Assembly: GCA_964576745.1 (NCBI GenBank)
Contig: CAZNUY010000003.1
Span: forward strand, 1-54,037
Direction of reading: 5' to 3'
Origin: an uncultured Candidatus Saccharibacteria bacterium
GTDB taxonomy: Bacteria; Patescibacteriota; Minisyncoccia; Phycocordibacterales; PALSA-1337
DNA: 54,037 bases
Shown piece after piece: positions 14,557 to 35,048 of this stretch. The position numbers and the translations under genes were made by a program. The notes beneath the pieces were generated by a model. The model saw nothing but the letters and a program-made list of their open reading frames with translations. It was not told the origin of the DNA and did not search any database. How positions within the stretch are numbered: the stretch's first letter is position 1; each line of letters begins with the position of its first letter.

Positions 14557-15837
14557 TTATAGTGGTAACATAATTTCGTAAAGCCTATAATCAGCGATAC
14601 TTCCAGCATATTCATTTAAAACCATCTTAACTTGATACGTAGTCATAAGCCTTTCTAAATACTCTAATGCTTTCATGTCCTTATTTGAAAATCCCAAATA
14701 AACCTTACCCTCTGGATTCAGATGATCATTAAGATTCTTAAAAAACTTATCAAGTACATTAAAATCATCGGTAGAAACACTATTCATCAATCTCGTATGG
14801 TTGGCAGAAATTTTCTCATGGTGAAATGGAGGATGAAATAGGATTACGTCTGCTTTTTCTTGACCAACAGGATCAAAGACCGAACCTTCTCTTACGTCTA
14901 TAATTTTTTCTAATTTAAGTCTCTTAACATTTTCCTTAGTATTTTCTACAGCTGAAGGATTAATGTCAACACTTATAACTTTTTTTGCACCATTAAGGGC
15001 GGCCAATATTCCTAGGTTGCCAGGTCCACAACCAATATCAAACACTATTTTATCTTCACAAATTTGACGCGAAATGTATTTAGCAAATGAAATTGAACTC
15101 CTAAATCTATTTGGAGGATACACATCGGGATGGATAACAAGCTCAAGACCCGCATACAATACGTTATATTTTTCATCGTACTGTTTGATGTTTTGATATA
15201 TCTGCTCTGATGTTAGAACTGGGTAATAATTTTTATTTATATAACCGCTAGCATCGTAATTAGTTATTATCTTATCGAGAACAGAGATTGCTTCCTTACC
15301 ATCTTTTACATAATAAATATTCTCTGGCAGTTTATCCCAATACAACCCCTCCTGTTTAATTTTATTACAAAGATCCTGATAAATTTCTGCCATCGGTGAT
15401 ACTATAATAATAGGTCTCTCTTCCTTACTAAGAAGCTGATTGATATGAACATCCAAGATTTCATGAAGAGTTCCTAATCCTCCTGCCATAGCAATAAATA
15501 CATCAGCCAAATCTGTCAGTCTTTGAATTCTATTTTTATATGCACTAAACCCTTCCCAATTGGTGAACCAGCTATGGATTTCGGGTTCATAATCTTTGAG
15601 ACCTACTCCGTAAACTTCACCACCGTGTGCAAATGCTTCTCTAGCAGTGACGCCCATAAGACCAACTTTTGAAGCTCCATTTACGAGAACATAACCCTTT
15701 TCAGCTAAACCACGAGCAATTTCTTTAGCGTCAGAAATATATTTTTCATTATTTGTATCATTTCCAGAACACATCAAAGTCACGTGGTATTTGTAACCAA
15801 GTTTTTCCTTTTGCTCTTTAGTGAATTTATTTAACAT
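14557..15837 (-). CDS. fusion protein: LOG/TIGR00730-like N-terminal domain plus class I SAM-dependent methyltransferase
   Basis: LOG motifs GASKVGLMG and AGGLGTLHE. Methyltransferase motif I is VFDIGCGPG; motif IV-like sequence is FHPPF. Confidence 0.7.
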   Translation of the reverse strand: MLNKFTKEQKEKLGYKYHVTLMCSGNDTNNEKYISDAKEIARGLAEKGYVLVNGASKVGLMGVTAREAFAHGGEVYGVGLKDYEPEIHSWFTNWEGFSAYKNRIQRLTDLADVFIAMAGGLGTLHEILDVHINQLLSKEERPIIIVSPMAEIYQDLCNKIKQEGLYWDKLPENIYYVKDGKEAISVLDKIITNYDASGYINKNYYPVLTSEQIYQNIKQYDEKYNVLYAGLELVIHPDVYPPNRFRSSISFAKYISRQICEDKIVFDIGCGPGNLGILAALNGAKKVISVDINPSAVENTKENVKRLKLEKIIDVREGSVFDPVGQEKADVILFHPPFHHEKISANHTRLMNSVSTDDFNVLDKFFKNLNDHLNPEGKVYLGFSNKDMKALEYLERLMTTYQVKMVLNEYAGSIADYRLYEIMLPL

Positions 15838-15918
15838 TTGTTAAATAGAATTAAAGCATTTTATTACAACATTGCATAGTTCTAAATGTTCACATACCGA
15901 AAATATAAGGGGTAATAA

Positions 15919-16431
15919 TCATGTCTCCCTATCAGAAATACTATATGTGCACAGTTTACGATTTCCGGGTTTATTTACAGCAGATAAAAGAGTAAGTTTT
16001 GGATTTGTAACAAATACTTTTATACCAGAACCGATCTTTTCTGGAAGAATGTTTAAAATAACCTTATCGATCAAACCTTCGCTCAGTGCTGAACTATTCA
16101 AGGTTGGACCACTTGTAAGTAATATATCCTGCCCTTCTAAAAAAGCATCTTTTGGAGAATTAGCAACTAAATATCCGTATTTCGGTATAAATTTATCATT
16201 ACTGGTAACAATAATCTTTTTAATATTCAAATCTTCAAAATCTTTGACCATCTCTTTTGGGTATCCTTGTATAGTTTCATATGTTTTTCTGCCCACCACA
16301 ACAGTGTCATAATTTCTGCAAATATCCAAAAAATCATCCCAAACTTCATCAGGAATAAAATCTTCACTACCATCAGGCCTTGCAATAAATCCGTCAGAAG
16401 AAATAACGTTGTATGAAGTTACCATAATCAA
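15919..16431 (-). CDS. dihydrofolate reductase-like / RibD C-terminal domain protein
   Basis: 170-aa ORF; VISSDGFIARPDGS...VVVGRKTYE pattern. Confidence 0.65.
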   Translation of the reverse strand: MIMVTSYNVISSDGFIARPDGSEDFIPDEVWDDFLDICRNYDTVVVGRKTYETIQGYPKEMVKDFEDLNIKKIIVTSNDKFIPKYGYLVANSPKDAFLEGQDILLTSGPTLNSSALSEGLIDKVILNILPEKIGSGIKVFVTNPKLTLLSAVNKPGNRKLCTYSISDRET

Positions 16432-16514
16432 AGTATAACAAGCCTAAAGATAAATTACATTCACATATGTAGAAGCTGACAATTGAATAATTGCATAAAT
16501 ATTGCTGACACTTA

Positions 16515-17657
16515 TTATTTATTACTTCTAAGAAACAAACTTTTCATTCCTATTAGACTGCTACATAATATTGCAAAATACATAAATAAAACAATTACAA
16601 GTGTTATTAAATTAATATATCCAGGCCATATATACATACCAATTTGGTCAATGTTTGACTGCGTCCCACTGTCAGGATTACTAGGATTATAAGGTGGAGC
16701 GACTCTTAGATGAAGTTTTTGAAAATCTTCAACATTAACACCTTTACATATCGTATCTCTTGGTAGGATATTAATAACTGAACTCTTGTCATCAATACTC
16801 AATCTAAGACTAATTGTATCCGCCTCGAGTCCATTTATAAAACAAAAACTCACCTGCTTAGTCCACGGCGGATCGAAGAACGGAAAAATATAACTCAACC
16901 ACTTCCCAACTTCATCAACATATCCCAACTCATTTGTTGAGAGGTATTCGATACTATCAGTAGGATTGCCGATAATAACACTTTGTATATAAGACTGAAA
17001 TAATTTTGACTTATCTATATTATATTTATTAAAACAAATATAAAATGACAACCCAATACAAATAACGGACACAATGAACAAGTTCCAAAAATATACTCTT
17101 TTCCAGATGTTTGAAATATAGAACCAAGGAATAATACCTACTTTCCTTTTGTATTCTAAATACCTATCCCCAAACTTTTTCTCAAGAAATCCATCCTCTT
17201 TTTTAATTACATACAACATAAAAAGTATGACAGGCAACATTAAAAAAGCCAACCAATAATGTAACTGGAGGTATATTCCAACACCAGTGAGTGCTGCCCC
17301 AGCATAGTATGGGTGTCGAGTAAATTTATACGGTCCACCTGTAAATAAAACATCACCGGAATCATCTCCCATAAATCCCCAATCTTTATTTCTATAAAAA
17401 CGAGTCCATATCATTAACGATAAACCAAGCAAGGAAAACAAAACACCCAAGTAGTAGCTAGGATTTGTAGTGTTTGTTTTCACTATCTCTAATAAGAGCA
17501 GTATTGGGAGTAAGAAAGAAATAAAGATCTCAATAATCTTTCTTCCCCAATAAATAAAGGAGGTAACCATTTTTCTATCCCTTTTTCCTTGTATCAAGGT
17601 AAAGCTATTTCGGAATACGATAAATCCTAAAAGTAATGCTATTGTCACTAATTTCAT
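16515..17657 (-). CDS. membrane methyltransferase (ICMT/PEMT-like) with about 200-aa C-terminal extension of unknown function
   Basis: 380-aa ORF; FTRHPYYAG motif within TM helices. Confidence 0.6.
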   Translation of the reverse strand: MKLVTIALLLGFIVFRNSFTLIQGKRDRKMVTSFIYWGRKIIEIFISFLLPILLLLEIVKTNTTNPSYYLGVLFSLLGLSLMIWTRFYRNKDWGFMGDDSGDVLFTGGPYKFTRHPYYAGAALTGVGIYLQLHYWLAFLMLPVILFMLYVIKKEDGFLEKKFGDRYLEYKRKVGIIPWFYISNIWKRVYFWNLFIVSVICIGLSFYICFNKYNIDKSKLFQSYIQSVIIGNPTDSIEYLSTNELGYVDEVGKWLSYIFPFFDPPWTKQVSFCFINGLEADTISLRLSIDDKSSVINILPRDTICKGVNVEDFQKLHLRVAPPYNPSNPDSGTQSNIDQIGMYIWPGYINLITLVIVLFMYFAILCSSLIGMKSLFLRSNK

Positions 17658-17677
17658 AGAATGAATGCTACCACTCG

Positions 17678-17700
17678 TTCACCACATTCACAATATTCAC
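17678..17700 (+). repeat. three TTCAC iterons at exact 9-bp spacing
   Basis: TTCAC at 17678, 17687 and 17696, immediately left of the junction copy at 17703. Confidence 0.7.
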
Positions 17701-17702
17701 AA

Positions 17703-17753
17703 TGTGACCCAACGGCCAAGTAGGTCGATATGCCTATTTAGGAGTCGACCTCG
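17703..17753. repeat. interrupted copy of the island-left junction (tgtgaccc.acgg + 25-nt insert + ggagtcgacctcg)
   Basis: Matches 18329-18353 (tgtgaccctacggggagtcgacctcg), including the island-specific cctcg that is absent from the tRNA. Confidence 0.65.
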
Positions 17754-17781
17754 ACTTCTGCCTTTATTGAATTTTTCTGAA

Positions 17782-18309
17782 TCACTTATGTGCAACAAAA
17801 ATTCCTTCAATATTTTCCAGCATTGTCTTATAAGAATCTTCATCAAAGCTGGTCCAAAATCCTATGAATTTACCATTATTAACTTTTTTACGAGGTAACC
17901 TTCCAGCAACAATATAATAACTTAATTTTTCAAGAACTTTTTTGTCTTCGTTGTTTATACTAATATCTTTCAAGTCTTCGAGCATTGAAATCAAATTATG
18001 ATGTGAATATTTTCCTGGTATGCACAACTCATCATTTTTACAAGTTATATTACCTTGACTAACCAACAAACCTTTAAGTAAGCACTCTATCGTCATACCT
18101 CGAAGCATCATGATCGTAGTCATGTAATCATTACATCCAATCTCTGCATTATTTTTCAAGTTCATCACTGATAACCAATTATCCGTTTCCAATTTTTCAT
18201 AAGCTTTCTTAAGCCTATCGGAATATGTTTGCCAAAGATTTAAATCTAAGACAATTTCGCAAAATTTTTTTGTGGAATCTTTATGATTCATTCTTTTTTT
18301 TAAGTACAA
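17782..18309 (-). CDS. hypothetical protein (weak HEPN-like helical pattern, not assignable)
   Basis: 175-aa ORF lying between the two junction copies. Confidence 0.45.
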   Translation of the reverse strand: MYLKKRMNHKDSTKKFCEIVLDLNLWQTYSDRLKKAYEKLETDNWLSVMNLKNNAEIGCNDYMTTIMMLRGMTIECLLKGLLVSQGNITCKNDELCIPGKYSHHNLISMLEDLKDISINNEDKKVLEKLSYYIVAGRLPRKKVNNGKFIGFWTSFDEDSYKTMLENIEGIFVAHK

Positions 18310-18326
18310 GATCTTAATTTCTAATT

Positions 18327-18348
18327 TTGTGACCCTACGGGGAGTCGA
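18327..18348. repeat. distal att-like direct repeat (copy of tRNA-Glu 3' end)
   Basis: Identical to 36710-36731. Confidence 0.85.
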
Positions 18349-18500
18349 CCTCGCCTCTCACTCGCTACCCGCTCGTTCGGGCTGGTCACCGGCTCGGCTG
18401 TTTCGCTTGCTAGCGAAACATGCCTCCGCCGTTCGCCTCCCCGACGCTCGCGCGCAGGCGCGAGCTTAGGCTCACACTCGCTACGCTCGTGTGACCTATT
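18349..18500. other. G+C-rich ORF-less structured module with a split reverse complement of the tRNA-Glu 3' end around a GCAG-loop hairpin
   Basis: ttcgcctccccg (18432-18443), AC, hairpin gctcgcgc-GCAG-gcgcgagc (18446-18465), T, taggctcaca (18467-18476), then the degenerate target gtgtgaccta (18489-18498). Confidence 0.6.
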
Positions 18501-18584
18501 AGCTTGGCTTTCAGAACTTACTAAACAAAGAGATTATATCAATTTGGCTCTAACTAATCTATCAGGTATTCTTGCTGAATAAAG

Positions 18585-18606
18585 TTCACGACGTTCACAC
18601 GTTCAC
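18585..18606 (+). repeat. three TTCAC iterons (spacing 9 and 8 bp)
   Basis: TTCAC at 18585, 18594 and 18602. Confidence 0.6.
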
Positions 18607-19109
18607 TCTATTTTTCTCCTATCTTTGTTTTTCTTTCTTTCCTCTCTTCGGATTCGTCTCTCTTCAGCTTTTTTCTCTTCTGCCTCTTTTCGAGCCTTCA
18701 TCTCTTCAGGAGTGACTACTCGCATATAATTCATGATCTTATAACCCTTTAAGTGCTCGAATGGATCAACGAATCTGTACCACTTTTCCATATGGGTATA
18801 ATCCTTTCCATCTTTTTCTCTCGTCTTAACCGAGTGAGATTTCAATAAATCTTTTGGTGGTAAAAAGTCCTTGTTGTCTTCAATGAGAAAGAGTTGTGCG
18901 TGAGTGCCCTTACCGTAGTAACTTATAGTTCGAGCTTTGAGAATACCTTCTTTAACCCATCTTCGAATGGTAACTGCCTTGAGCTCAAAGTTATATTCCA
19001 AATCAAATTCGCTATACCAACTATCCTTATCCTTTGCGAGAGAAGCTGGAATCTCTCCTTCATCAATTGCTTTCTGACAAACAAGACACTTTATTCCATA
19101 TTCGTCATA
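18603..19109 (-). CDS. HTH (excisionase/MerR-like) DNA-binding segment with Lys/Arg/Glu-rich tail; same frame as 19110..19952 and separated from it only by TAG
   Basis: Motif AVTIRRWVKEGILKA. The frame is open from 19109 down to TGA at 18603. The ORF track starts at a TTG at 19001, and no ATG lies upstream. Confidence 0.5.
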   Translation of the reverse strand, partial: YDEYGIKCLVCQKAIDEGEIPASLAKDKDSWYSEFDLEYNFELKAVTIRRWVKEGILKARTISYYGKGTHAQLFLIEDNKDFLPPKDLLKSHSVKTREKDGKDYTHMEKWYRFVDPFEHLKGYKIMNYMRVVTPEEMKARKEAEEKKAEERRIRREERKKNKDRRKIE

Positions 19110-19952
19110 CTAATTGTCACCTTCATTCATAATAGAGTGACCGCAAATAAAACAACGATAACCACGACCTTCGAGATGGAACCCTTTAGGGTTAGCCTTT
19201 AATTTCTCCTGAAGTATTTTTTCTTTCTCCTCCCATTCTTTCACAATTTTCCCCATGTTTTCCAATCTCCATTTTTGATCCCGATATTCGGCACCTTGTT
19301 CATCTGTTAGACAGAAACGATCCCGATCCTTAGCAAAATCAGCATCAAATTCATCATCCTTTTCTTTTGCGTGTCTCCATTCGTATTCATCAGTTTCTGT
19401 GTAGCCACATTTCGGGCAAGAGTTAGTTGTTATAACCTTTTTATCATCATCTTTTCTCCTTGTTTCGAGAGGAGTGCTGCAATGCAGACATAGTATGGGT
19501 TTAACTCTCCACTCTTCACCATCTGAAAAGAAAGCTCTGCGAGGAAGACATTTATTTGGGCAGTCATACATAAATAAAACACGATCAGGTTTTTCAAGAT
19601 CGGTCCAAAGGTCTTTGAATGTCACCTTCATTCTATTTCGGCATGTAAGGCAACGAATATCTTCTGGTGCTTGAGCTGAAGCGTAAAAATCATCTCTCTG
19701 CTTATCTTTATCCATCCATTCCTGAATAGTTTTATTTCTATTTAAATATCTTTCTCCCTTCGTAATATTAAGAGATAGTTTTTTAGCATAAGCTTCAGCA
19801 GCAGCTGCATCTTCTTCACTAATTGAGCCATCTTCAGGAAGAGGCTTTTTTGATTCCGTAAAGAATTTTTCTATACGCCGACACTCTTCTACAGTGTGTC
19901 TGTCATAGAGATCGGAATAATATTGTTTAGATTTAAGATGTGGTTCTGACAT
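19110..19952 (-). CDS. multi-zinc-ribbon protein (three CxxC...CxxC units, the last one completed only downstream of its TAG stop)
   Basis: 280-aa ORF; CLTCRNRM..CPNKC, CLHCSTP..CPKCG, CFICGHS then TAG. Confidence 0.6.
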   Translation of the reverse strand: MSEPHLKSKQYYSDLYDRHTVEECRRIEKFFTESKKPLPEDGSISEEDAAAAEAYAKKLSLNITKGERYLNRNKTIQEWMDKDKQRDDFYASAQAPEDIRCLTCRNRMKVTFKDLWTDLEKPDRVLFMYDCPNKCLPRRAFFSDGEEWRVKPILCLHCSTPLETRRKDDDKKVITTNSCPKCGYTETDEYEWRHAKEKDDEFDADFAKDRDRFCLTDEQGAEYRDQKWRLENMGKIVKEWEEKEKILQEKLKANPKGFHLEGRGYRCFICGHSIMNEGDN

Positions 19953-19957
19953 AGAAT

Positions 19958-22810
19958 TTATTCATCTTCTTGTTCTTTTTTCAGCATTTTCCTCTTCTCC
20001 AATTCTGCCTGATGTTCTTTCTCACTAGCTGCTATCATCTGTTTTAAGATAGTCACTGTTTCGGCAATAAATCTCTGACCTTTCTTTGAGCTAGTATTGT
20101 TAGCAAGAGCCTCTATTTCATTCACCTTGGCTTGCCATGCCTTACCAAAAAGATTTTCGCCAGCTGGGCCACTTACTGATCCAACATTTGTAAGATACCC
20201 TTTAAGAGTTCGTATGAGGTCTTTGTCATCTGTGATTTCAACTAGCCTGAGACAAAATTGAATATCAATGGAATCAAATTTCGGTAGTAATTCAATAGCT
20301 TCTGCAATTTGTTTTTTCTTACCACTCAACACGAGATCGTAGATAATTTCTTGAGCAATAGAAGGTGCAAACGAATCCAGAAGGCTGGAAAGGTTGTAGC
20401 TAAAGACAGAAATCTTTCCTAAATGCTTTTTACTCCAAACTTTTACTATTTCTTTTACTTTGTCAGTATTCTTTTCAAAGAGTGGTTTAAGTTCGTCTGC
20501 GTGTCTCGGAATAGCCTGATAATAGTGACCTAATTCAAAGGTTTTTGAGGATTTCTGTTTTTCAAGCATTCTTCGGTAGAGGACATCCATAAATAGCTCA
20601 AAATCAACTTCCCCTAAGGCAATTAAAATTTCAGTACCGTGGTGTTCTAAGGAAGAGACCTTTACTAATAGACCAGCAAAATGTTCTAAATCCACTTTTG
20701 GCCAGTCGGATAATGAGAGCATTCCGTCTCTTAAAGCAAAATCTATGGTCATCAAATTTAAAATAACCTGGTCTGGATAATTTTTCAGTAACTCAAGAAA
20801 AATCTTTCGACATTTTCCGGGGTCTAAGGCTGATATTCTGAAAACCCCATATAGGACATAGTAAAAATTTGGATATTTTAAGGGGAGCGCTTCAAAATCA
20901 AATTTATCCTTTCTAAATATAATATTTTCAAGAATTGAAATGTCTTCAGGAGAAACTTTGTCTACATTTCCTTTATCTAAATATATAAAGGAGGCAGCGA
21001 TAGCGACTGCAAAGTCAGGCTGCTTCTTGTGTGATAGAAAATCGATAACCGAATCTAGGATTGCACGATTGCCGCTATTTCTAATTCCACCTATGAGCTC
21101 TGCCAATTTTGTAGATAAAGGCAGATTACTTTGGACCGACTGCTCGATTAGTTTTTTTGCTACATTAGGTTTAGTTTTACCTACATCAACTAGAAAAGTC
21201 TTAAAATTGACGAGACCGTTTAATGGTTCCAACTCGCTCATTTTTGCAACATCAGACAAATCTTTCAGGTACTTTTTCAGATTCCCTTCCGAAATTGTTT
21301 GTACATGCTTGTCTATGGCTTCTTTCCATTCTCGATCTACTGTTTGATAGTCGTCTTCGTCTCGCAATTGAAAAGCTTGGCCGATGAGAAGACGATATAA
21401 ACCATATATTCCTTTATCATTTTGAAGTCTTTCTAAAAGCTTTCCAACTGGTGGAACGCTACCGCCATGAACCCTCTTCATCCAACCGAGCTGCTGCTCT
21501 AGCTTTAAGACAATTGGAGATTCAACAATAATTTTATTATCTTCGAGGATAATATTTGTAATTTCTTTGATGAAAAATCTCACATCACCTTCAATCATTT
21601 TCTGCGCTTTTTCTTTTTGTTCATCAGGACCAATTTCATGAGATACATGAGTAGAGTGCAGTATTATCTCTAAAATCTTCAGTTTATCCTGAACCTTAGC
21701 TATCTTGAACATAGAGATAAGTTCAATAACCACTTTTCTTCTAAATTTTGCTAAGTAGGGACTTGCATTTAGTGGTCCTCGGTGGAAAACCATCGTAATA
21801 TCATCTCTCATTGAAGTCCCATCATATGAAGGTTCAAGTAAAGATTCGTAAACAATTTTTAGGGTATCAATGTTGCTGATCTTTTCCTTGATGTCATGGG
21901 TTTCCAGAAAAGCATGCACAGCTTCTTGAGGACCATATCCCAAAGAAATTAACGCATGGTAATTATATGCGGCAACATGCTTCATTTTCTCAATAAGTAC
22001 ACTCTGAATGTTTTTATTAATTTCTATTTTGGAAAAAGAATATAAAAGATTAAAAACCTCCTTTGGCTCGAAGTATCGAATTACATCAAGAGCTTCTATG
22101 TATACTTTAAGCACTCTCTCATTTGCTGGAGAATTGTTTGCTTCAGATAGTAACTTTTGTCCGATAGATAGAATATGTGGAACAACTAGATGTTCACCTT
22201 TAACAGAACGATAATGAGCTAATTTCTCAAGGGTTTTTATTCTTTCAATTAGCACTTCTGGAGCAAGATAACCAACATCTTTTTGGTCAGCAAGTAAATC
22301 CTTTATAAGATGATCGTTCGTTTTATTGAAATGATGATTACATATGTCTTTCCACTCCTTGAGATAAGAATCGTCACCCTTCTTTATAATATTTTTCCTA
22401 TTAAAATATAATCTCTTTTCAGCAGGAACATTGCTTTTACCTAATATAGTTGCAGCTGTCTCTTTGCTTAAATAAAGCCAATACGCTACTTGTTCCGTAG
22501 GGTCAACTGCAATAAATAAAAGTGGTAAGTTGGAGGAAGCTGCATAAGCTAGCAGTTTGGATGGACATAATGAGAATGGGGCTTTAGTTTTCTTGGCATA
22601 GGAAAGCGGCTTGATTTGCACTTCCAAATTCAAACCAGTTGTTTCTCTTTTTGAGTTGAGGAGTTGTAAGTGTCCATCTGTATCCGGATATGTATCATCT
22701 CCCGATGTGAGCTTTTCTATTAACTTGTCAGATAAAATCTGCTTGAGAACGCCAATTTCCTGTTTTTCTATTGCTTTGCTTTTTGAGTAAACTGAGCGTT
22801 TGATTGCCAT
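19958..22810 (-). CDS. 950-aa protein: N-terminal DUF4365-like PD-(D/E)xK nuclease fold plus about 800-aa alpha-helical repeat region
   Basis: YPDTDGHLQL ... LEVQIKPLS ... PLLFIAVDPTEQVAYWLYL pattern. The rest is helical with no recognisable motif. Confidence 0.55.
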   Translation of the reverse strand: MAIKRSVYSKSKAIEKQEIGVLKQILSDKLIEKLTSGDDTYPDTDGHLQLLNSKRETTGLNLEVQIKPLSYAKKTKAPFSLCPSKLLAYAASSNLPLLFIAVDPTEQVAYWLYLSKETAATILGKSNVPAEKRLYFNRKNIIKKGDDSYLKEWKDICNHHFNKTNDHLIKDLLADQKDVGYLAPEVLIERIKTLEKLAHYRSVKGEHLVVPHILSIGQKLLSEANNSPANERVLKVYIEALDVIRYFEPKEVFNLLYSFSKIEINKNIQSVLIEKMKHVAAYNYHALISLGYGPQEAVHAFLETHDIKEKISNIDTLKIVYESLLEPSYDGTSMRDDITMVFHRGPLNASPYLAKFRRKVVIELISMFKIAKVQDKLKILEIILHSTHVSHEIGPDEQKEKAQKMIEGDVRFFIKEITNIILEDNKIIVESPIVLKLEQQLGWMKRVHGGSVPPVGKLLERLQNDKGIYGLYRLLIGQAFQLRDEDDYQTVDREWKEAIDKHVQTISEGNLKKYLKDLSDVAKMSELEPLNGLVNFKTFLVDVGKTKPNVAKKLIEQSVQSNLPLSTKLAELIGGIRNSGNRAILDSVIDFLSHKKQPDFAVAIAASFIYLDKGNVDKVSPEDISILENIIFRKDKFDFEALPLKYPNFYYVLYGVFRISALDPGKCRKIFLELLKNYPDQVILNLMTIDFALRDGMLSLSDWPKVDLEHFAGLLVKVSSLEHHGTEILIALGEVDFELFMDVLYRRMLEKQKSSKTFELGHYYQAIPRHADELKPLFEKNTDKVKEIVKVWSKKHLGKISVFSYNLSSLLDSFAPSIAQEIIYDLVLSGKKKQIAEAIELLPKFDSIDIQFCLRLVEITDDKDLIRTLKGYLTNVGSVSGPAGENLFGKAWQAKVNEIEALANNTSSKKGQRFIAETVTILKQMIAASEKEHQAELEKRKMLKKEQEDE

Positions 22811-22887
22811 ACATTATTTTTACATATACATTCATAGTCTTAGTTAAAGCGGATTTTAGCATTTTTTAGGCTTAAAATAAAGAAAAA

Positions 22888-22917
22888 TCGCACCTGCTGC
22901 CGAAGCTACAGGTGCGA
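22888..22917 (-). terminator. intrinsic terminator after purM (symmetric hairpin with A/T runs on both sides)
   Basis: tcgcacctg ... caggtgcga form a 9-bp stem, flanked by aaaaa and attttt. Confidence 0.6.
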
Positions 22918-22942
22918 GTATTTTTCAGGAACTTGTTCGAAC

Positions 22943-24046
22943 TCATCGAACCGCCAGCGTCTCGCCCGCGTACTCGAGACCTTTCGGCTTGATGACGACT
23001 TTCTTGTCGCCGTTCTCGATGTGCCCGGCAGCCAGAGCCTTGAGGCCGAGCTGTTGCGTCACCCCGAGAACTTTCTCGACGTCGGCTTCCGCCACGTAGA
23101 GCGCAAACCCTGCGCCCATGTTCAGGTTGCCGTAGGCTTCCTGATCATCGACCGGTCCATGCTCCTGGATGAAGCTGAAGATCGGAAGCTGCGTCGGAAG
23201 CGTGTCGATCATGTAGGCGAAAGGCTGCGTTGCCCGCATGAGCTTGCGCCAGCCGTGGCCGGTGACGTTCACCGCGTAGTGAATATCAACGCCTGCATCG
23301 AGGCAGTCTTCGACGAGGCCGACGTAAATGTGTGTCGGATCGAGAAGTGCTTCGCCGTAGCTTCGGCCGTCAGAGAGTTTCGTGAGATACCCGTCCGGCA
23401 GCTTATCGGCAATCTTGCGCGCGAGCGTGAGCCCGTTCGCATGGATACCCGAGCTTTCGACAATCACGATCATGTCGCCGTGAGCGATCTTACCGATGAT
23501 CAGACGCTCCTTCGGCTTCACGATTCCAATCGCGGAACCGGAGAGCACAACGGCTTCCGGAACCACGACACCCTTGAGAGTCGGCGTTTCGCCTCCGCCC
23601 CAAGTGCAGCGGGCCAAGTCGCAGGCTTTCTTCCAGCCGTTGACCAGATCGCGGGTGCGGTTCTCGTCATTGAACCAGTCTGAGACGCCGACTGCGAGAT
23701 GCATGGCGACCGAGAGAGGCAATGCGCCGAGTGTCACCAGGTCATTCACGATCATGGCGACCGTGCACTGAGCGACATGGTCGTAATACGATTTGCCGGT
23801 GAGGGCATACATCGCGTCCGCGACCAGGTTCTTGGTGCCGAGGCCTTCCTCCACATGAGCGAAGTAACTTTTAGCCGCTTCGATCAGGTAGGCGCTTTCG
23901 CCTCGTGAGGGTTCGAACTCCCGGAACTCGCCGCCATTGAGACGAGCGATGTTGCCAGCTGTTTCTCGCGCAGCAAGCTGCGCCATCCGTTTGAATGGGT
24001 CCATGGCATCGTAATTGACACCGGTACCCGCGTAGGTCATGTTCAT
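22943..24046 (-). CDS. purM: AIR synthase (PurM) family, phosphoribosylformylglycinamidine cyclo-ligase-like
   Basis: 367-aa G+C-rich ORF; EEGLGTKN (DGVGTK-like) and PurM-type N- and C-terminal domain layout. It is a divergent subtype. Confidence 0.7.
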   Translation of the reverse strand: MNMTYAGTGVNYDAMDPFKRMAQLAARETAGNIARLNGGEFREFEPSRGESAYLIEAAKSYFAHVEEGLGTKNLVADAMYALTGKSYYDHVAQCTVAMIVNDLVTLGALPLSVAMHLAVGVSDWFNDENRTRDLVNGWKKACDLARCTWGGGETPTLKGVVVPEAVVLSGSAIGIVKPKERLIIGKIAHGDMIVIVESSGIHANGLTLARKIADKLPDGYLTKLSDGRSYGEALLDPTHIYVGLVEDCLDAGVDIHYAVNVTGHGWRKLMRATQPFAYMIDTLPTQLPIFSFIQEHGPVDDQEAYGNLNMGAGFALYVAEADVEKVLGVTQQLGLKALAAGHIENGDKKVVIKPKGLEYAGETLAVR

Positions 24047-24090
24047 GTGTTGCTCCTTTTCTTTTGTGAAATGTTCAGATGCTGAACGTG

Positions 24091-24118
24091 ATATTACTTA
24101 AAATTTGACAAAAAGCAA
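24091..24118 (-). promoter_or_regulatory. sigma-70-like promoter of purM (TTGCTT, 16 nt, TAATAT)
   Basis: Plus strand atatta at 24091-24096 and aagcaa at 24113-24118. The whole module is nearly identical to the one upstream of purD. Confidence 0.55.
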
Positions 24119-24129
24119 ATAAAATAGGC

Positions 24130-24150
24130 CTACGATTTTTTAGGTCGTAG
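24130..24150 (-). terminator. weak hairpin terminator after purD
   Basis: ctacga/tcgtag stem with an A/T-rich loop and flank. Confidence 0.3.
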
Positions 24151-24177
24151 ACCATTTTGAGTTGGAGCAACACAACT

Positions 24178-25494
24178 TCATACTCCGAGAGACTTCGCGC
24201 CGATGTCCTTGCGATAATGCGCTCCTTCGAAATGAATGCACTCGACTCCGTTGTAAGCGTGATCGAGAGCTTCCTGAAGAGTTGCACCGAGTGCGGTGAC
24301 ACCGAGAACACGACCACCGGCAGTGACGAGCTGGCCATCAGCCTGTTTGGTCCCTGCATGGAACACGACGACGCCCGGAAGAATCTCGGCGTTATCGATG
24401 CCTGTGATCGGCAAACCTTTCTTGTAGTCGGGCGACGGATAGCCGCCAGACGCCATCACGATGCAGGCAGCGAAGCCGGGGTTCCACTCGACGTTAATCT
24501 CATGGAGCCGTCCATCAGCACATGCCTCGAAGATGTCGAGCAGATCAGTTTTCAGAAGTCGCATGTAAACCTGGGTCTCCGGATCACCGAATCGGGCGTT
24601 GAACTCGAGCACCGACAGGTCCCATTCGGGAACTGCTGGTGGATCGTTTCTCCGGACTTTGAGTCCCGGATAGAGTAAGCCAACAAACGGCGAGCCTTTT
24701 CCACGAAGACCTTCGAGGATCGGACCGACAATCTGTTCACCTGCAGCATCGTGGCTCACGAACCACGGCACCGGAGCAATCGTTCCCATTCCGCCGGTAT
24801 TCGAACCCTTGTCGCCGTCGAAGACAGGCTTATGGTCCTGAGCCGAGGGAAACATCTTGAACGACTTACCGTCGCAGAAGGCGTGGATTGAAACTTCTTG
24901 TCCTCCAGCGAACTCCTCGACAATGACTTCATCGCCGGCGCTTCCATGGAGCTTCTTGACCATGATCTCATCGAGAGCTTGTTCGGCTTCTGCGAGATCG
25001 TGGCAGACGTATGCCCCCTTTCCGAGAGCGAGACCCGATGCCTTCACCACGATCGGCAAACCTTGGTAGGCCGCGAAGTGGCGTCGGACATGTTCGAGTG
25101 CCTGCGTATGGTCAGTGTAAACATCGAAGTGCGAGGTTGGCACGCCTGAATCTTTCATGAGGCGTTTCGAGAACACCTTCGATGCTTCGATCTGCGCTGC
25201 GGCTTTGCTCGGACCGAAGATCTTCAGTCCTTTTGCCTGGAACGCATCAACGATGCCGAGCGCCAGCGGATCATCCTGACCCACAATGGTGAAATCAATT
25301 CCTTCCTTGAGTGCGAAGGCCAAGAGACCGTCCACATCCGTCGCTTTCACTGGGACGTTTTCTGCGATCTGTGCCGTGCCAGCATTGCCGGGGGCAACGT
25401 AGAGTTTTCCGAGACGTGGCGACTGATGAAGCTTCCATCCAATGGAATGCTCACGACCGCCACCACCAACGAGTAGTACTTTCATCTGGTTCAT
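24178..25494 (-). CDS. purD: phosphoribosylamine-glycine ligase (GAR synthetase)
   Basis: 438-aa ORF; MKVLLVGGGGREHSIGWKL N-terminus and ATP-grasp layout. Confidence 0.9.
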   Translation of the reverse strand: MNQMKVLLVGGGGREHSIGWKLHQSPRLGKLYVAPGNAGTAQIAENVPVKATDVDGLLAFALKEGIDFTIVGQDDPLALGIVDAFQAKGLKIFGPSKAAAQIEASKVFSKRLMKDSGVPTSHFDVYTDHTQALEHVRRHFAAYQGLPIVVKASGLALGKGAYVCHDLAEAEQALDEIMVKKLHGSAGDEVIVEEFAGGQEVSIHAFCDGKSFKMFPSAQDHKPVFDGDKGSNTGGMGTIAPVPWFVSHDAAGEQIVGPILEGLRGKGSPFVGLLYPGLKVRRNDPPAVPEWDLSVLEFNARFGDPETQVYMRLLKTDLLDIFEACADGRLHEINVEWNPGFAACIVMASGGYPSPDYKKGLPITGIDNAEILPGVVVFHAGTKQADGQLVTAGGRVLGVTALGATLQEALDHAYNGVECIHFEGAHYRKDIGAKSLGV

Positions 25495-25542
25495 GACTTG
25501 GTTCTCCTTTTCTTTTGTTAGAGGTTCTGTGTTCTGAGGCTG

Positions 25543-25570
25543 ATATTACCTAAAATTTGACAAAAGGCAA
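25543..25570 (-). promoter_or_regulatory. sigma-70-like promoter of purD (TTGCCT, 16 nt, TAATAT)
   Basis: Plus strand atatta at 25543-25548 and aggcaa at 25565-25570. Confidence 0.55.
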
Positions 25571-25585
25571 TAAAAATTTGAAAAG

Positions 25586-25613
25586 TTGCAAAAAAGATAT
25601 TTTTAATTAATAT
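25586..25613 (+). promoter_or_regulatory. sigma-70-like promoter of purN (TTGCAA, 16 nt, TAATAT), divergent from the purD promoter
   Basis: ttgcaa at 25586-25591 and taatat at 25608-25613; RBS taggagatagg before the ATG at 25653. Confidence 0.5.
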
Positions 25614-25652
25614 TCTTTTTAGATCATCAAACCAAATATAGGAGATAGGCAC

Positions 25653-26324
25653 ATGAGCAAATCGAAAGTTCTTGTCTTCGCGTCAGGGTCGGCTGAAGGT
25701 GGCGGATCGGGCTTTGAAAAGCTCATCCTTGCTTCCCGAGGTGGACCACTTGATGCAGACATCGTCGCAGTTGTTTCAAATCATGCAAACGGAGGAGTGC
25801 GTGCTCGGGCAGATAAGCTCGGCGTTCCCTTCCTCCACTTCCCGAAGCCATGGACCGCAGAAGCGTATCAAAAGTTCGCCTCCGAATCCGGTGCAGACTT
25901 CTTTGCGCTCTCCGGCTGGCTGAAATTGGTGACCGGACTCGATCCGGTTACCCGATTCAATTCACGGACTGTCTTCAACATTCATCCCGGACCACTTCCG
26001 GACTTTGGTGGTCCGGGACTGTATGGGCATCATGTCCACGAAGCAGTCATCGCAGCTTTCGGCCGGCGCGAGATCACACACTCGGCTGTTTCGATGCATT
26101 TCGTCACCGGCGAATATGATCGCGGACCGGTTTTCTTCCGGTGCAACGTCAAAATCAACGGAGACGATACAGCCGACACGATTGGCACCCGGGTCAATCA
26201 GCAGGAGCATATCCATCAGCCGAAAATCACCAGCATGGTGGTAAACGGTCTGATCAAGTGGGATGGAATCAATCCCGATTCGCTCCAAGTTCCGGAAGGA
26301 TACTCGGTCGAATGCTTCGCCTGA
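25653..26324 (+). CDS. purN: phosphoribosylglycinamide formyltransferase
   Basis: 223-aa ORF; VLVFASGS...NIHPGPLPDFGG formyltransferase motifs. Confidence 0.85.
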   Translation: MSKSKVLVFASGSAEGGGSGFEKLILASRGGPLDADIVAVVSNHANGGVRARADKLGVPFLHFPKPWTAEAYQKFASESGADFFALSGWLKLVTGLDPVTRFNSRTVFNIHPGPLPDFGGPGLYGHHVHEAVIAAFGRREITHSAVSMHFVTGEYDRGPVFFRCNVKINGDDTADTIGTRVNQQEHIHQPKITSMVVNGLIKWDGINPDSLQVPEGYSVECFA

Positions 26325-26345
26325 TTTACGCGCATGCGCATCATC

Positions 26346-26380
26346 ATGAGCGGTTCTGAAAAACGGACCGCTCATTTTTT
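26346..26380 (+). terminator. intrinsic terminator after purN
   Basis: tgagcggt / accgctca form an 8-bp stem followed by tttttta. Confidence 0.6.
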
Positions 26381-26402
26381 ATTTGAAATTAAGCAATTTT
26401 TG

Positions 26403-26430
26403 TTGCTTAAAGTCTAATTTTGAGTAATAT
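26403..26430 (+). promoter_or_regulatory. sigma-70-like promoter of purL (TTGCTT, 16 nt, TAATAT)
   Basis: ttgctt at 26403-26408 and taatat at 26425-26430. Confidence 0.5.
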
Positions 26431-26506
26431 GACGACTAGATAGCACCTCTCGGAGGTGCATTGTTTTTTGTCATCCCAAACGTAAACAACAAAAGAAGGA
26501 GAAGCC

Positions 26507-29500
26507 ATGATCTATCGCATGTATCGCCAGATGGACAGCGGCCTAGAACTTGGTTTCTACGTCGAAACCACTGGCCAGCTGTCCGAGCCGGAGCTTCAAC
26601 AGCTCCAATGGCTCATCGCAGAAACGTTCGAGCCGGCAAAGACCGGACTTGAACCCAGCCTCACAGCAGACGTTGTCGAGATTGGACCCAGGCTCTCGAT
26701 CGAGACTCCGTTCTCATCGAATGCCGTCTCTATCTGCCAGGCCATGGGGCTCGGCAGAATCACGCGCATCGAGCGCACGCATCGCTACGCCGGCAACGGC
26801 AGCTCGGACCACATTCTCAAGACTCGTCTTGATCGGATGACCGAGCAGCACTACCCCAGCGGGATCGAGACCTTTGACACCGGCGTCTCGCCGGATGATG
26901 TCCGAGTGATCGATCTCATTGGCCGCGGAAAGGCAGCTCTCGAGGAGATGAACAGCGCACTTGGCCTCGGCATGGATGCCAGAGACCTCGAGTACTATCA
27001 GCATCTCTTTGCGGAAGTCCTGAAAAGGAATCCGACCGACGTCGAACTATTCCAGCTGGGCAATGCCAACAGCGAGCACAGCCGGCACTGGTACTTCAAA
27101 GGTCAGATCGTCATCGACGGAACGCCGATGCAGGAGACTCTGTTCGAGATCGTTCAGCGACCGCTGAAAAATCTCGGCAGCGAAAACTGCAGCCTCGTTG
27201 CCTTCAGGGACAACGCCGGTGTGATCCAGGGATTTGGCACGCGTCTTATCCTTCCGGTCACGCCGGGCAAGCCTTCGGAAATGCGGCTCATGGAAAAGGT
27301 GATTCACATCACCTGCACCGCTGAGACGCACAACCATCCCACGTTCGTCGCACCGTTCCCCGGAGCTCAGACAGGAGCCGGCGGTCGGATACGCGACAAC
27401 AGCGCAGTCGGACGCGGCGGTATCGTCGGCATCGGTGTCGCCGGTTACTTTGTCGGAAACCTTTTCATTCCGGGTCACGAGATTCCTGGAGAGGCTATCG
27501 GCAAGGATAAGCCGTCGAAGTACGCTTCGCCGCTTTCGATCTTGATCGAGGGCAGCAACGGCGTGTCGAGCTACGGCAACCAGTTCGGCGAGCCTCTCAC
27601 ACTCGGCTTCACCAGAACCTACGGTCAGATGATCGGCAAAGAATGGCGCGAGCCACGCAAGCCGATTCTCTACAGCGGTGGCGTCGGGCATCTGTTCGAC
27701 GGGCATACTGCGAAGGAGACATCTGAAGTTGGAATGCTCATCGTGCGCATCGGCGGTCCTGCCTATCCCATCGGGGTCGGCGGCGGCTCAGCCTCAAGCA
27801 TGATGCAGGGCCAGAACACCGAGACGCTTGATTTCAACTCCGTTCAACGCGGTAACGCAGAGATGGAGAATCGTGCGAACCGAGTCATTCGGGCCTGTGT
27901 TGAGATGGGAGACAGCAATCCCATTTCGAGCATTCACGATCAAGGCGCTGGTGGTCCGAGTAATGTCCTTACGGAGTTGCTTGAGCCACTTGGTGGCAAG
28001 ATCAGCATTCGCGGTATCGTACTTGGTGACAAGACGATGTCCGTCCTCAAAATCTGGAGCGCCGAATTCCAAGAAGGATACGGACTCCTGATCAGGCCGG
28101 AGCAGATCGAGCTTTTCAAGTCGATCTGCAAGCGCGAGCGCGTCAACTGCGAAGTCCTCGGAGAAATCGACGGAAGCGGAAACGTTGTCGTTGAAGACTC
28201 CCTCAACGGGACAACGCCCGTAAGTCTCAACCTGGAGCAGATTCTCACGAACATGCCCCAGAAGACGTTCGAGTCAAATCGGCGGACCGAAGGCCTCAAG
28301 CCTCTGGACCTGCCGGACGTCACAGTCGCCGAAGCGCTTGAAAAAGTGTTCAGGCTTCCCAGCGTCGGCTCGAAAGGGTTCCTCGTTCACAAGGTGGACC
28401 GAAGCGTCACTGGGCTTGTATCGCAGCAGCAATGCTGCGGGATCGCCCAGATTCCAATCGCCAATGTAAGCGTGAATGCTCAGAGCCATTTCGGTTTGAG
28501 CGGAAGCGCCTCTGCAGTCGGCGAACAGCCAGTGAAGATGTTGATCGATCCGAAAGCTGGAGCTCGAATGGCGGTGGCAGAAATGTTCACCAACATGGCC
28601 TCGGCGCGGATCAGCGGTATCGGAGACATTCGATGCCGTGCAAACTGGATGTGGCCTGCGAAGTTACCACACGAAGGTGCCTTACTCTATGACGCTGCGG
28701 TTGCTATGTCTGACCTCATGGTTGGGCTCGGCATCGCAGTCGATGGCGGAAAGGACAGCCTTTCGATGGCTGCGACGATTTCGGGAGAGCTCGTAAAGGC
28801 TCCCGGAAGTTTGGTGATTCTCGGATACGCACCCGTGTCTGACATTACCAAGAAGGTCACGCCGGACATCAAAAAGCCCGGCGCTAGCAGTCTCGCATTG
28901 ATCGATCTTGGTCAGGGCAAAAATCGCCTCGGCGGTTCAGCTCTGGCTCAGGCATTCAACCAGCTCGGCGATAAGTCGCCTGACGTTGAAAATCCCAAGC
29001 TCCTCAAGAACGCGTTTCTTGCGGTGCAGCAGATGATCGGCGAAGGGTTGATTCTGTCTCTGCATGATCGAAGCGACGGCGGCCTCATAACCGCAGTAGC
29101 TGAGATGTGCATGGCGAGCCGGTGCGGATTCAATGTGAGCATCCCTCACGCTGCAGAAGCTCTGGCCGTCCTCTTTGGCGAGGAACCCGGGTTCGTTATT
29201 GAACTCGAGACTGTAAACGAAAAGCGGATTGTTGAAATCTGCGAATCGTTCGAAGTGCCGATCTCCACGATCGGTATCACCCTCGACAGCACATCATGCG
29301 TCGTCGATGCAAAAGATGCCGGAGAACTGTTCAGAAGTACTGTGATGGAACTCCGGAGCTGGTGGGAAGCCACAAGCGCCAAGATCGAAGAGCTGCAGAT
29401 GAACTCTGCGTGTGCCGAAGAAGAATACTCTGGTCACGAGGACCAGCTTCCCGGCATCGGTACGGCTCCGTCGTATCAGCTCTCATTCGCTCCAGTGGAA

Positions 29501-30331: not shown

Positions 30332-30354
30332 GGATATGTTCCAAAGCCAATCCT

Positions 30355-30392
30355 GACCCCTTGCGTAGCAATGCGCGAGGGGTCTTTTATTT
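30355..30392 (+). terminator. intrinsic terminator after purL
   Basis: gaccccttgcg / cgcgaggggtc form an 11-bp stem (one G-U pair) followed by ttttattt. Confidence 0.65.
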
Positions 30393-30416
30393 AGATTCAA
30401 TTATATTAAAGCGACA

Positions 30417-30430
30417 TTCACAACATTCAC
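30417..30430 (+). repeat. two TTCAC iterons, 9-bp spacing
   Basis: TTCAC at 30417 and 30426. Confidence 0.6.
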
Positions 30431-30559
30431 AGTACATGGGGAAATTTAGGGAAAAAAGTGCCAAAAAGGAGCTCTTTTTCGCTCTATTTGGCCTAGGAGT
30501 GCACCTATTTTCACCTTTTTGCACTAGCGATTTGGAAAATTGCTGATGTTGCTATAACA

Positions 30560-30582
30560 TTCACAATATTCACGATGTTCAC
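30560..30582 (+). repeat. three TTCAC iterons, 9-bp spacing
   Basis: TTCAC at 30560, 30569 and 30578 (acattcaca atattcacg atgttcacg). Confidence 0.7.
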
Positions 30583-31813: not shown

Positions 31814-31874
31814 AGCAAGCTTAATCTTGCCGAAAGCCTGAAATCCCTTACAGCAGGGGCTTTTTTGTTATTGC

Positions 31875-31902
31875 TTTAAGAGCTATTTAAGCGTGCTTTA
31901 AG
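31875..31902 (+). promoter_or_regulatory. three TTTAAG direct repeats at 11-bp phasing, candidate operator upstream of 31964
   Basis: TTTAAG at 31875, 31886 and 31897. Confidence 0.35.
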
Positions 31903-31963
31903 TTTATCTCCGGACCTACGATGTAAGCAGATTTTTGCGAAATCTTTTATCAAAAATAATTAA

Positions 31964-32248
31964 ATGCTTATGAGAAAACATGTAACCAAGGTCCCGTTAG
32001 ATGACAATGAAAAATATCTGTCGAATGACATTGATGTAGCAGTAACGCTGCTATGCAAAGGCTATACCCTCGAAGATATTAAACTTCTTACCAATAAAAA
32101 GGCTACTTTCGTATTCAAAGATCATCCAGCTATTAAGGCTGCAGTTGATGGCTTTTGGAGTAACCGGATAGAAGTCCATCCTCTTGAGTTTGCGAATATT
32201 CGCAAGAACTTAAAATCACGCATTTACGCAATGCAGAAAGATTACTAA
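31964..32248 (+). CDS. DUF5659-like small protein
   Basis: 94-aa ORF. The pattern LLCKGYTL..I......ATFVF.D...I..AV..FW........P.EF.N..K.LKSRIY recalls DUF5659 (from memory). Confidence 0.5.
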   Translation: MLMRKHVTKVPLDDNEKYLSNDIDVAVTLLCKGYTLEDIKLLTNKKATFVFKDHPAIKAAVDGFWSNRIEVHPLEFANIRKNLKSRIYAMQKDY

Positions 32249-32263
32249 ACCAAATAAACAAAA

Positions 32264-33634: not shown

Positions 33635-33652
33635 AAACCTAACTTAAATTTT

Positions 33653-34177: not shown

Positions 34178-34222
34178 ATATGGAGAATCCTTAATGATTT
34201 CGGCAGAAATATTGAAATTGAT

Positions 34223-34798: not shown

Positions 34799-34802
34799 CA
34801 CT

Positions 34803-35045
34803 ATGGAAAATAATTTATCAAATAATTCCAATACTGATCCTAAAACACCAACTCTTTCAAAAGTTGATTCAGAAACTGTGGATAAAAGTTCTGAAAAGCG
34901 TGCAAAGGGGTATATTCTTTCTGACGAAACTTTCAGAGCTTTGACGGATTTAGGCGATATTTTGAGAAGTATCCATCAGGACATGATTGATGAGGGGTAC
35001 GAGTTCGTTGATGGGACAATCCAGAAGAAAATTGATAAAATTTAA
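34803..35045 (+). CDS. hypothetical small protein immediately upstream of the recombinase
   Basis: Internal ATG (MENNLSNN...) of ORF 34758..35045, chosen to avoid overlap with the preceding gene. Confidence 0.4.
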   Translation: MENNLSNNSNTDPKTPTLSKVDSETVDKSSEKRAKGYILSDETFRALTDLGDILRSIHQDMIDEGYEFVDGTIQKKIDKI

Positions 35046-35048
35046 GTA

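Follow-up and report, generated by a model that had tools for sequence, protein, structure and literature searches.

What is a single polypeptide that joins a nuclease-like head to a very large helical body doing on a mobile island of a small bacterial genome? The question is raised by the gene P0001, which occupies positions 19958–22810 (minus strand, TAA stop codon included) of a 54,037-nucleotide stretch of DNA (hereafter, the window; contig CAZNUY010000003.1 of assembly GCA_964576745.1) from an uncultured Candidatus Saccharibacteria bacterium, the source genome (828 kb in 89 contigs) being of the candidate phyla radiation (CPR)/Patescibacteria type. An earlier reading of the letters alone (the original prediction) had taken P0001 for a defence-type gene encoding a 950-amino-acid protein and had paired it with a neighbouring zinc (Zn)-ribbon/helix-turn-helix (HTH) gene. 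The open reading frame (ORF) itself is intact, as the ORF list and translation give 950 uninterrupted codons from an ATG start to the TAA stop, and its product can be aligned over its full length with homologues (P0003, P0004 and P0005–P0014). Arguing by analogy with characterized systems, we suggest that P0001 is probably a self-contained sensor–effector protein acting by abortive infection, which would belong to a conflict system (most likely anti-phage or anti-plasmid) and is carried as cargo on a serine-recombinase island. We favour a self-contained anti-virus sensor because the relatives of P0001 swap its head for other cell-killing enzymes.

A predicted DREN-type nuclease head

Residues 1–145 (22376–22810, minus strand) are predicted from Pfam, PADLOC, profile comparison and an AlphaFold model to be a PD-(D/E)xK nuclease domain of the DUF4365/DREN type, with an intact site (E15...D45...Q65-x-K67). 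The Pfam family PF14280 (DUF4365) matches residues 44–140 with 23.9 bits (cut-off, 24.3), and the precomputed DUF4365 matches of P0003 and P0004, the two closest relatives, are flagged as weak; other relatives pass, with 43.6 bits for a separate 304-amino-acid head (G295), 38.3 for P0055, 31.0 for P0156 and 28.8 for a fused head (G301). The PADLOC model of Argonaute-associated restriction endonucleases (Aga_REase) matches the same stretch of the head (4.2e-7), over model positions 39–127 of 429 only, and a profile built from an alignment of 18 heads matches the solved DREN-APAZ (9jsb) and DUF4365 (9qbq) proteins with E = 0.001, in an alignment that spans the IDG, the VQIK and the PV-LL...AYW strand. 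In the AlphaFold model, the head consists of a helix (10–26), four strands (31–35, 47–51, 57–68 and 78–83), a second helix (84–92) and two further strands (97–103 and 108–113), an order (alpha-beta-beta-beta-alpha-beta) that is of the restriction-endonuclease type as read from the secondary structure of the model; the predicted local distance difference test (pLDDT) values are mostly 72–93.

The three peptides on which the original prediction had based its assignment are all present (YPDTDGHLQL at residues 41–50, LEVQIKPLS at 62–70 and PLLFIAVDPTEQVAYWLY at 96–113), and the restriction-endonuclease-fold head that it had recognized is upheld by the Pfam and DREN-profile matches above, whereas the E-x-K motif that it had read there has to be revised. 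Given that E63 is variable among the 18 aligned heads, that K67 is invariant (as are E15, D45 and G46) and that Q65 is nearly so (as are D39, P42 and W111), the predicted catalytic motif is D...Q-x-K rather than E-x-K, and this motif is intact in P0001. It also fits TmuRE, a DUF4365 nuclease whose active site is predicted to comprise Q62 and K64, and of which the Q62A/K64A mutant served its authors as the inactive form (PMC10810196). The core catalytic stretch, from D45-G46 (IDG) to Q65-I-K67 (VQIK), was placed at 22610–22678 by the alignment and the solved DREN domains, and the codon of E15, which is the invariant glutamate of the first helix and a putative metal ligand, at 22766–22768 (both minus strand).

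A karyopherin-like helical body

Behind the head lies a connector (residues 146–230; 22121–22375, minus strand), recognized from the conserved columns of the DUF4365-fused subfamily and from the secondary structure of the model, in which a long helix (148–174) with a conserved W153..H160-x-N162..N165-D166 pattern is followed by the first of the helices that lead on to the solenoid. The remaining ~720 residues (231–950; 19961–22120, minus strand) are modelled as a HEAT/karyopherin-like alpha-solenoid, delimited by phmmer alignments, AlphaFold and Foldseek, and this solenoid is the constant module of the family. A first AlphaFold model, which was computed from three sequences, had a pLDDT of 67.6 and an unfolded head; it was superseded by a second from a 43-row alignment (m70309f6a9525; pLDDT 88.6; predicted template modelling (TM) score 0.74), in which most of the body reaches 80–97 and a stack of paired helices extends from about residue 180 to 950, with one beta-hairpin insert (328–346). 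For both models the top Foldseek matches were importin-13, transportin, CRM1, CAND1 and PP2A-A, with low TM-scores, as is usual for flexible solenoids. In sequence, the body matched nothing in Pfam, PADLOC or PHROGs and gave just marginal matches to designed armadillo-repeat proteins among the sequences of the Protein Data Bank.

The body had been described as uniformly helical and devoid of any motif that could be named. The first part of this description agrees with the AlphaFold models, which are almost wholly helical there; the second does not hold, as the family alignments contain recognizable motifs, all encoded on the minus strand. The beta-hairpin insert (21773–21829; model strands 328–334 and 340–346) carries S-(F/Y)-(E/D)-G-T...T-x-x-x-H-x-G in alignments A3 and A4. 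Residues 763–770 (YYQAIPRH; 20501–20524) contain the motif Y-x-A-I-P, in which P768 is invariant and Y764 almost so, and residues 876–885 (VGSVSGPAGE; 20156–20185) are a clade variant of the glycine motif TGVVSGEYG, which is near-universal in the family, with G877 and G881 invariant throughout.

One body, many heads

An exhaustive phmmer search over 1.84 billion representative proteins returned 481 matches at E ≤ 1e-3 and 71 at 1e-30, nearly all of which begin at about residue 230. Sorting of the best 150 matches gave 42 DUF4365-like heads, 37 RelA/SpoT-like heads and a TIR/NB-ARC cluster of 3, and about 55 of these proteins consist of the body only (~800 amino acids). With a family hidden Markov model (HMM), the body was found in 9 of 401 sampled genomes of the phylum, each from a different genus; it is combined there with DUF4365 (fused in G000 and G301, and as a separate overlapping gene in G295), with a fused RelA/SpoT head (G045, G160, G273 and G346) or with separate heads without an assigned type (G055 and G264).

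The TGVVSGEYG block alone pulled 57 family loci from species-representative genomes, which belong to CPR lineages (Patescibacteria, Paceibacterota, Moraniibacteriota, Saccharibacteria, Falkowbacteria and Uhrbacteria), to other uncultured lineages (Nitrospirae, Deltaproteobacteria, Anaerolineae, Bacteroidota, Bacilli and one Micrarchaeota archaeon) and to cultured bacteria (Pseudomonas graminis, Pseudomonas sp. KK4, Pelomonas, Cupriavidus, Variovorax, Undibacterium, Piscinibacter, Mitsuaria, Massilia and Lysobacter). Overall, the family is spread over CPR bacteria, Proteobacteria, Cyanobacteria, Firmicutes and one Micrarchaeota genome. Five plasmids also carry the body (in Legionella adelaidensis, Pseudanabaena, Rhizobium rhizogenes, Sphingobium and Aulosira), their members being annotated as hypothetical, 'RelA/SpoT domain-containing' or 'poly-gamma-glutamate hydrolase family'. 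The R. rhizogenes plasmid pC6.5d encodes a 1,310-amino-acid protein of the last kind (L115:4891–8823), which has the solenoid in its C-terminal part and adjoins a SIR2 family gene and insertion sequence (IS) elements; the part annotated as poly-gamma-glutamate hydrolase may be a further head type.

Heads are also supplied in trans. Each body-only gene among the 57 loci for which upstream contig sequence is available is preceded by a gene that ends between −26 and +7 nucleotides before it. As judged from locally built HMMs and precomputed Pfam labels, this upstream gene encodes the PIN-like nuclease PF16289 PIN_12 (formerly DUF4935) in Proteobacteria and DUF4365, NB-ARC or an unassigned product elsewhere; a 2017 survey of PIN domains listed DUF4935 as of unknown function and 'usually mono-cistronic'. 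In P0080, P0133 and L052, an NB-ARC ATPase of the STAND class (signal transduction ATPases with numerous domains) comes ahead of the body, which there stands where sensor repeats are otherwise placed. At least 41 switches of head state are required on a tree of 186 bodies, in which P0001 belongs to a clade of 12 DUF4365 fusions with full support. We conclude that the body is what stays constant in a large, sporadically distributed family, whose interchangeable toxic heads are either fused to it or provided by a translationally coupled upstream gene. Some members are broken (that is, the G160 body at L006:704–3738 is split into overlapping frames of 777 and 292 amino acids, and L085:7361–9405 is in three pieces), which is consistent with frequent decay of accessory genes.

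The exchange of heads bears on two other conceivable roles. In the first, P0001 would be a nuclease on a karyopherin-like scaffold that serves DNA repair, RNA processing or cargo handling; HEAT solenoids are indeed general protein-binding scaffolds, the body motifs are conserved and some loci have housekeeping neighbours. We nonetheless regard such a non-conflict role as highly improbable, given that the body occurs in only ~2% of the phylum's genomes and is scattered over unrelated phyla, that it lies in variable or mobile DNA wherever this can be judged, and that a single housekeeping reaction makes no sense for heads swapped among enzymes as chemically unrelated as a nuclease, a pyrophosphokinase, TIR and PIN. 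In the second, which we consider extremely improbable, an episymbiotic CPR cell would deliver P0001 as an offensive toxin to its host or competitors, with the solenoid as the delivery or targeting module. Although CPR bacteria live attached to other cells and the heads look like domains of polymorphic toxins, such toxins, unlike the present proteins, do not have their toxic domain at the N terminus, and the family is found equally in free-living Pseudomonas, Pelomonas and Variovorax and on cyanobacterial plasmids. Moreover, no secretion-associated domain was found in Pfam, PADLOC and PHROGs searches, and no conserved small downstream gene (that is, a candidate immunity gene) was seen among the 57 loci.

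A search with alignment A1 found no close relatives in species-representative genome contigs or IMG/VR, and phage records gave no match; for a sensor–effector role in conflict, this lack of relatives in phage records and IMG/VR neither helps nor hurts.

Neighbourhoods of the relatives

Genes of Hachiman, Thoeris and restriction systems are among the neighbours at family loci. In Pseudomonas graminis, for example, the PIN_12–body pair stands beside HamA, a resolvase, AlpA, a phage integrase, ThsB_TIR and ThsA_Macro, and in G055 an SRA-HNH gene adjoins the body locus. A Patescibacteria contig (L111:819–13226) carries, in this order, HTH_17, a PLD/SNF2 helicase (1,063 amino acids), an MmeI-type methylase (1,049 amino acids), a 220-amino-acid head, the body and a UvrD helicase, and an MmeI-type methylase is directly upstream again in L052, L061 and L062; the head–body pair may, in some lineages, be wired into a restriction-like system. 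Mobile DNA is a further recurrent setting: in Legionella and an alphaproteobacterium the pair sits on small integrase islands, and at seven CPR loci either a homologue of the window's serine recombinase or a Resolvase-domain gene is found within a few kilobases. The genomic context expected for homologues by the original prediction is found in one respect, with defence or mobile genes at several loci, and not in the other, as co-occurrence with the Zn-ribbon/HTH gene is rare (see below). The defence-type role that it had proposed remains the best reading, given the exchange among RelA/SpoT, TIR, NB-ARC and PIN_12 heads and the known defence genes nearby.

These settings could also be taken to indicate addiction, in which a fused toxin–antitoxin, with the solenoid restraining the nuclease toxin in cis, would chiefly stabilize the mobile island rather than sense phages. 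The P0001 gene is cargo of a recombinase island, relatives are found on plasmids and on minimal integrase islands of which head and body are nearly the sole cargo, and RelA/SpoT, PIN and nuclease heads come from domain families that are also found as toxins of toxin–antitoxin systems. Nevertheless, we think addiction unlikely to be the main role, as an 800-amino-acid antitoxin would be far bigger than known antitoxins, and as the NB-ARC fusions and the Hachiman, Thoeris and restriction neighbours speak for immune sensing; the two roles are, however, not mutually exclusive.

A role of P0001 as a sensor and effector of defence has points against it too. The defence role of all members is deduced from architecture and neighbourhood only, proximity to defence genes is seen at individual loci only, and the DUF4365 score of P0001 itself is just under the curated Pfam threshold (23.9 versus 24.3 bits). 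The strong conservation of body motifs (TGVVSGEYG, Y-x-A-I-P and the SFEGT hairpin) could mean a conserved ligand or partner instead of a diversifying phage sensor. Some loci (L019 and L112) have ordinary housekeeping neighbours, which are to be expected in small genomes and are not informative.

Comparison with known immune systems

Judged by analogy, P0001 would work like DSR2, Olokun or CapRel, yet it is a member of none of them. With DSR2 it shares the layout of a single polypeptide of ~1,000 amino acids, in which an N-terminal toxic enzyme head precedes a C-terminal HEAT-like alpha-solenoid and which has no nucleoside triphosphatase (NTPase). In DSR2 of Bacillus subtilis, the solenoid captures a phage tail-tube protein, which activates the SIR2 head (PMC11850899 and PMC11263360). 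The head of P0001 is instead a DUF4365 nuclease, with no SIR2 match in the Pfam and PADLOC scans, and the two solenoids are alike at the level of fold only, with no PADLOC match outside the head of P0001; the 50 top-ranking Foldseek matches listed for the P0001 models did not include DSR2.

Olokun, an anti-phage 2:2 complex of the adaptin-like OloA and the PD-(D/E)xK nuclease OloB (bioRxiv 10.1101/2025.07.10.664194), combines a helical-repeat protein with a nuclease, as do the split head–body operons of the present family. It differs in gene order and in the families of the heads (DUF4365, PIN_12, RelA/SpoT and TIR in the present family), and in P0001 the two parts are fused. In a PADLOC scan, no model of any kind matched the bodies of P0001, P0017 (a protein without a head) and G264, and no Olokun model was matched by these proteins or by the separate heads; Olokun models are, we take it, contained in PADLOC-DB 2.0.

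SPARDA has the DUF4365/DREN nuclease family in common with P0001, including the Q-x-K site in IDG...VQIK, and differs in its sensor, which is a guide-loaded Argonaute as opposed to a protein solenoid. Membership of P0001 in SPARDA was considered and rejected, as no APAZ or Argonaute match was obtained among the scanned ORFs from 14557 to 26324 and the Aga_REase match is limited to the nuclease part. CapRel SJ46 and other fused toxic small alarmone synthetases (toxSAS) resemble the sister proteins with a RelA/SpoT head (PADLOC candidate PDC-S33, 1.6e-13), and in both the C-terminal part of the protein may keep the toxic head inactive and also pass on the trigger to it. The C-terminal part of CapRel is small (~100 amino acids) and unrelated to the body of P0001, whose own head is a nuclease and not RelA/SpoT. 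Finally, Avs and other STAND proteins likewise join an effector head to a repeat sensor and have swappable effectors, and NB-ARC precedes the body in some family members; an identity of P0001 as a STAND ATPase was rejected, given that P0001 and most other members have no NTPase.

A literature search on DUF4365 with HEAT, on toxSAS with HEAT repeats, on PIN_12/DUF4935 and on HEAT-repeat conflict or antiphage systems did not find this architecture described. Together with the lack of a PADLOC model beyond the head, this agrees with the earlier statement that no described system of this composition was known.

Proposed mechanism

We propose a mechanism modelled on DSR2, SPARDA and Olokun. In the resting state, the solenoid would hold the nuclease off while serving to recognize a trigger that derives from the invader, probably a phage protein. 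Among the features of the family itself, that the body senses something is suggested most strongly by its place in the NB-ARC fusions, where it stands at the position of the STAND sensor repeats. Binding of the trigger would then alter the conformation or oligomeric state of the protein and thereby bring nuclease heads together, a step that we include because the solved DREN nucleases of SPARDA are active only on assembly. The SPARDA DREN nuclease is described as a collateral DNase/RNase that filament assembly switches on after target recognition (PMC12205087). The activated heads of P0001 might, in the same manner, degrade nucleic acid indiscriminately and so bring the infected cell to a stop. 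The downstream Zn-ribbon/HTH gene would not be required.

Extended to the whole family, the proposal becomes more ambitious, and we give it about an even chance of being correct: the body would be the sensor hub of a broad, as yet unnamed immune family of bacteria and at least one archaeon, which needs no NTPase, controls six or more kinds of effector, whether fused or separately encoded (that is, DUF4365 nuclease, PIN_12, RelA/SpoT, TIR, NB-ARC-linked heads and the domain annotated as poly-gamma-glutamate hydrolase) and travels on serine-recombinase islands in CPR bacteria.

A facultative Zn-ribbon/HTH neighbour

The original prediction had paired P0001 with the Zn-ribbon/HTH gene, a pairing that is largely unsupported as a defining feature. 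The close spacing is as it had been described, with the ATG of the neighbour (at 19952) starting 5 nucleotides past the TAA stop of P0001 on the same strand. The gene itself is not intact, however: the Cys-rich ORF of 280 amino acids (19110–19952) continues in frame beyond a single TAG (19110–19112) into another ORF (18603–19001), and the two together make up a frame of 449 codons (18603–19952, minus strand) for a multi-Zn-ribbon/HTH protein, in which homologues (G211 and L057) have Trp at the TAG position. The part after the TAG contains a stretch that looks like an excisionase/MerR-like HTH (TIRRWVKEGILKA). Because of the in-frame TAG, the product would be truncated before its HTH part or need read-through. 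Recoding of TAG as a sense codon was rejected, as no second stop of this kind was seen and the remaining ORFs of the window are long under translation table 11.

If the Zn-ribbon/HTH protein were the specific partner of the nuclease–solenoid protein (for example, its antitoxin, regulator or co-sensor), the two would constitute an obligate two-gene system. This is decidedly unlikely, even though the 5-nucleotide gap does not stand alone. In G346, a homologue lies just downstream of the RelA/SpoT–body gene, with an IS1595 transposase gene between them, and in L057 a 225-amino-acid Zn-ribbon/HTH gene, 59% identical to residues 230–419 of the window protein, follows a split head–body pair after 4 nucleotides; by our informal estimate, three adjacencies are above chance expectation for a family present in ~11% of genomes. 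Against this, the window copy is cut by the TAG ahead of its HTH part, and, within the sample of 401 genomes, the family adjoins the body gene in G000 and G346 only; six of the nine phylum genomes with a body gene lack this neighbour, as do 56 of the 57 genome loci (L057 being the one with it). It is also missing beside P0003 (57% identity, L001), the closest relative with a contig that extends past the gene (the contig of P0004 stops 72 nucleotides past it), and from the contigs L019, L020/L021, L022 and L023, which carry family members. The Zn-ribbon/HTH family, moreover, outnumbers the body family about fivefold (44 versus 9 of the 401 genomes), and in other genomes it follows genes that are unrelated to one another and often unassigned, usually within 3–46 nucleotides.

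In other Patescibacteria, the Zn-ribbon/HTH gene comes after a SMODS and AGS_C (CD-NTase-like) enzyme in L032:6535–7866 and L031:5911–7212, with gaps of 3 and 548 nucleotides, respectively, and it overlaps an upstream DUF5677 gene in L038:8104–8901; in L037, a 453-amino-acid gene of the family is instead upstream of a 1,014-amino-acid RelA/SpoT–body gene. It is more likely that the Zn-ribbon/HTH gene is a facultative neighbour of conflict genes (that is, a regulator or an island gene) than an obligate partner. As the family also follows SMODS–AGS_C and DUF5677 genes, it may represent a shared regulator or component of several Patescibacteria conflict cassettes.

The island and its surroundings

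The location on a mobile island, on which the original prediction had partly relied, is borne out. P0001 lies within an 18.4-kb tRNA-Glu island (18327–36731) bounded by an exact 22-nucleotide direct repeat (18327–18348 and 36710–36731), the right-hand copy of which overlaps the 3' end of the tRNA-Glu gene; the island encodes a serine recombinase of 574 amino acids and a G+C-rich purine block. The recombinase ORF (35049–36773, plus strand) overlaps both the tRNA-Glu gene (36712–36784, minus strand) and the right-hand repeat. The purine block (22943–30331) encodes purM-, purD-, purN- and purL-type enzymes and, as its G+C content is 55–60% amid the 35–40% of the genome and the island, is compositionally foreign cargo.

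Between this block and P0001 lies a terminator-like hairpin (22873–22916, minus strand) with a 10-bp stem followed by UUUUUCUUUAUUUU, which RNA folding gives as −20.3 kcal/mol (z = −4.4). A scan for promoters and terminators around the gene was uninformative, and the hairpin was spotted by eye and then folded. Because it separates the purine block from the gene, P0001 and the Zn-ribbon/HTH neighbour are probably a transcription unit of their own.

Other genes in and around the island deserve brief mention. Within it, a 456-amino-acid gene without a Pfam match (32264–33634, plus strand) has a homologue with 41% identity (L058:1132–2358) in a Moraniibacteriota genome, ~5 kb from a RelA/SpoT–solenoid gene; related islands may thus carry different versions of the cassette. 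Just outside it, on the minus strand, are a 426-amino-acid protein (14557–15837) in which a SLOG/LOG-like domain is joined to a class I methyltransferase and the methyltransferase part of which matches PADLOC mad2 of the MADS system (5e-26), and, beyond the left repeat, a 175-amino-acid ORF (17782–18309) with weak HEPN and RnlA-toxin-like matches (E ~0.006).

Implications

If the proposed role is correct, the body would be one of the few recognizable innate-immunity modules in the ultra-small genomes of CPR bacteria and would offer a handle on phage resistance in these organisms, for which few defences are known. P0001 would also be a case of a DREN-type collateral nuclease at work outside the Argonaute context, and the NTPase-free sensor family to which it belongs would join single-chain sensor–effector immune proteins such as DSR2 and CapRel. 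The natural head swaps amount to ready-made chimeras, with which the control of chemically unrelated effectors by a single sensor could be studied, and the proposal would be directly testable in the cultured carriers among Pseudomonas, Pelomonas, Variovorax and Legionella. One helical-repeat module would then underlie hundreds of uncharacterized defence candidates across very different microbes.

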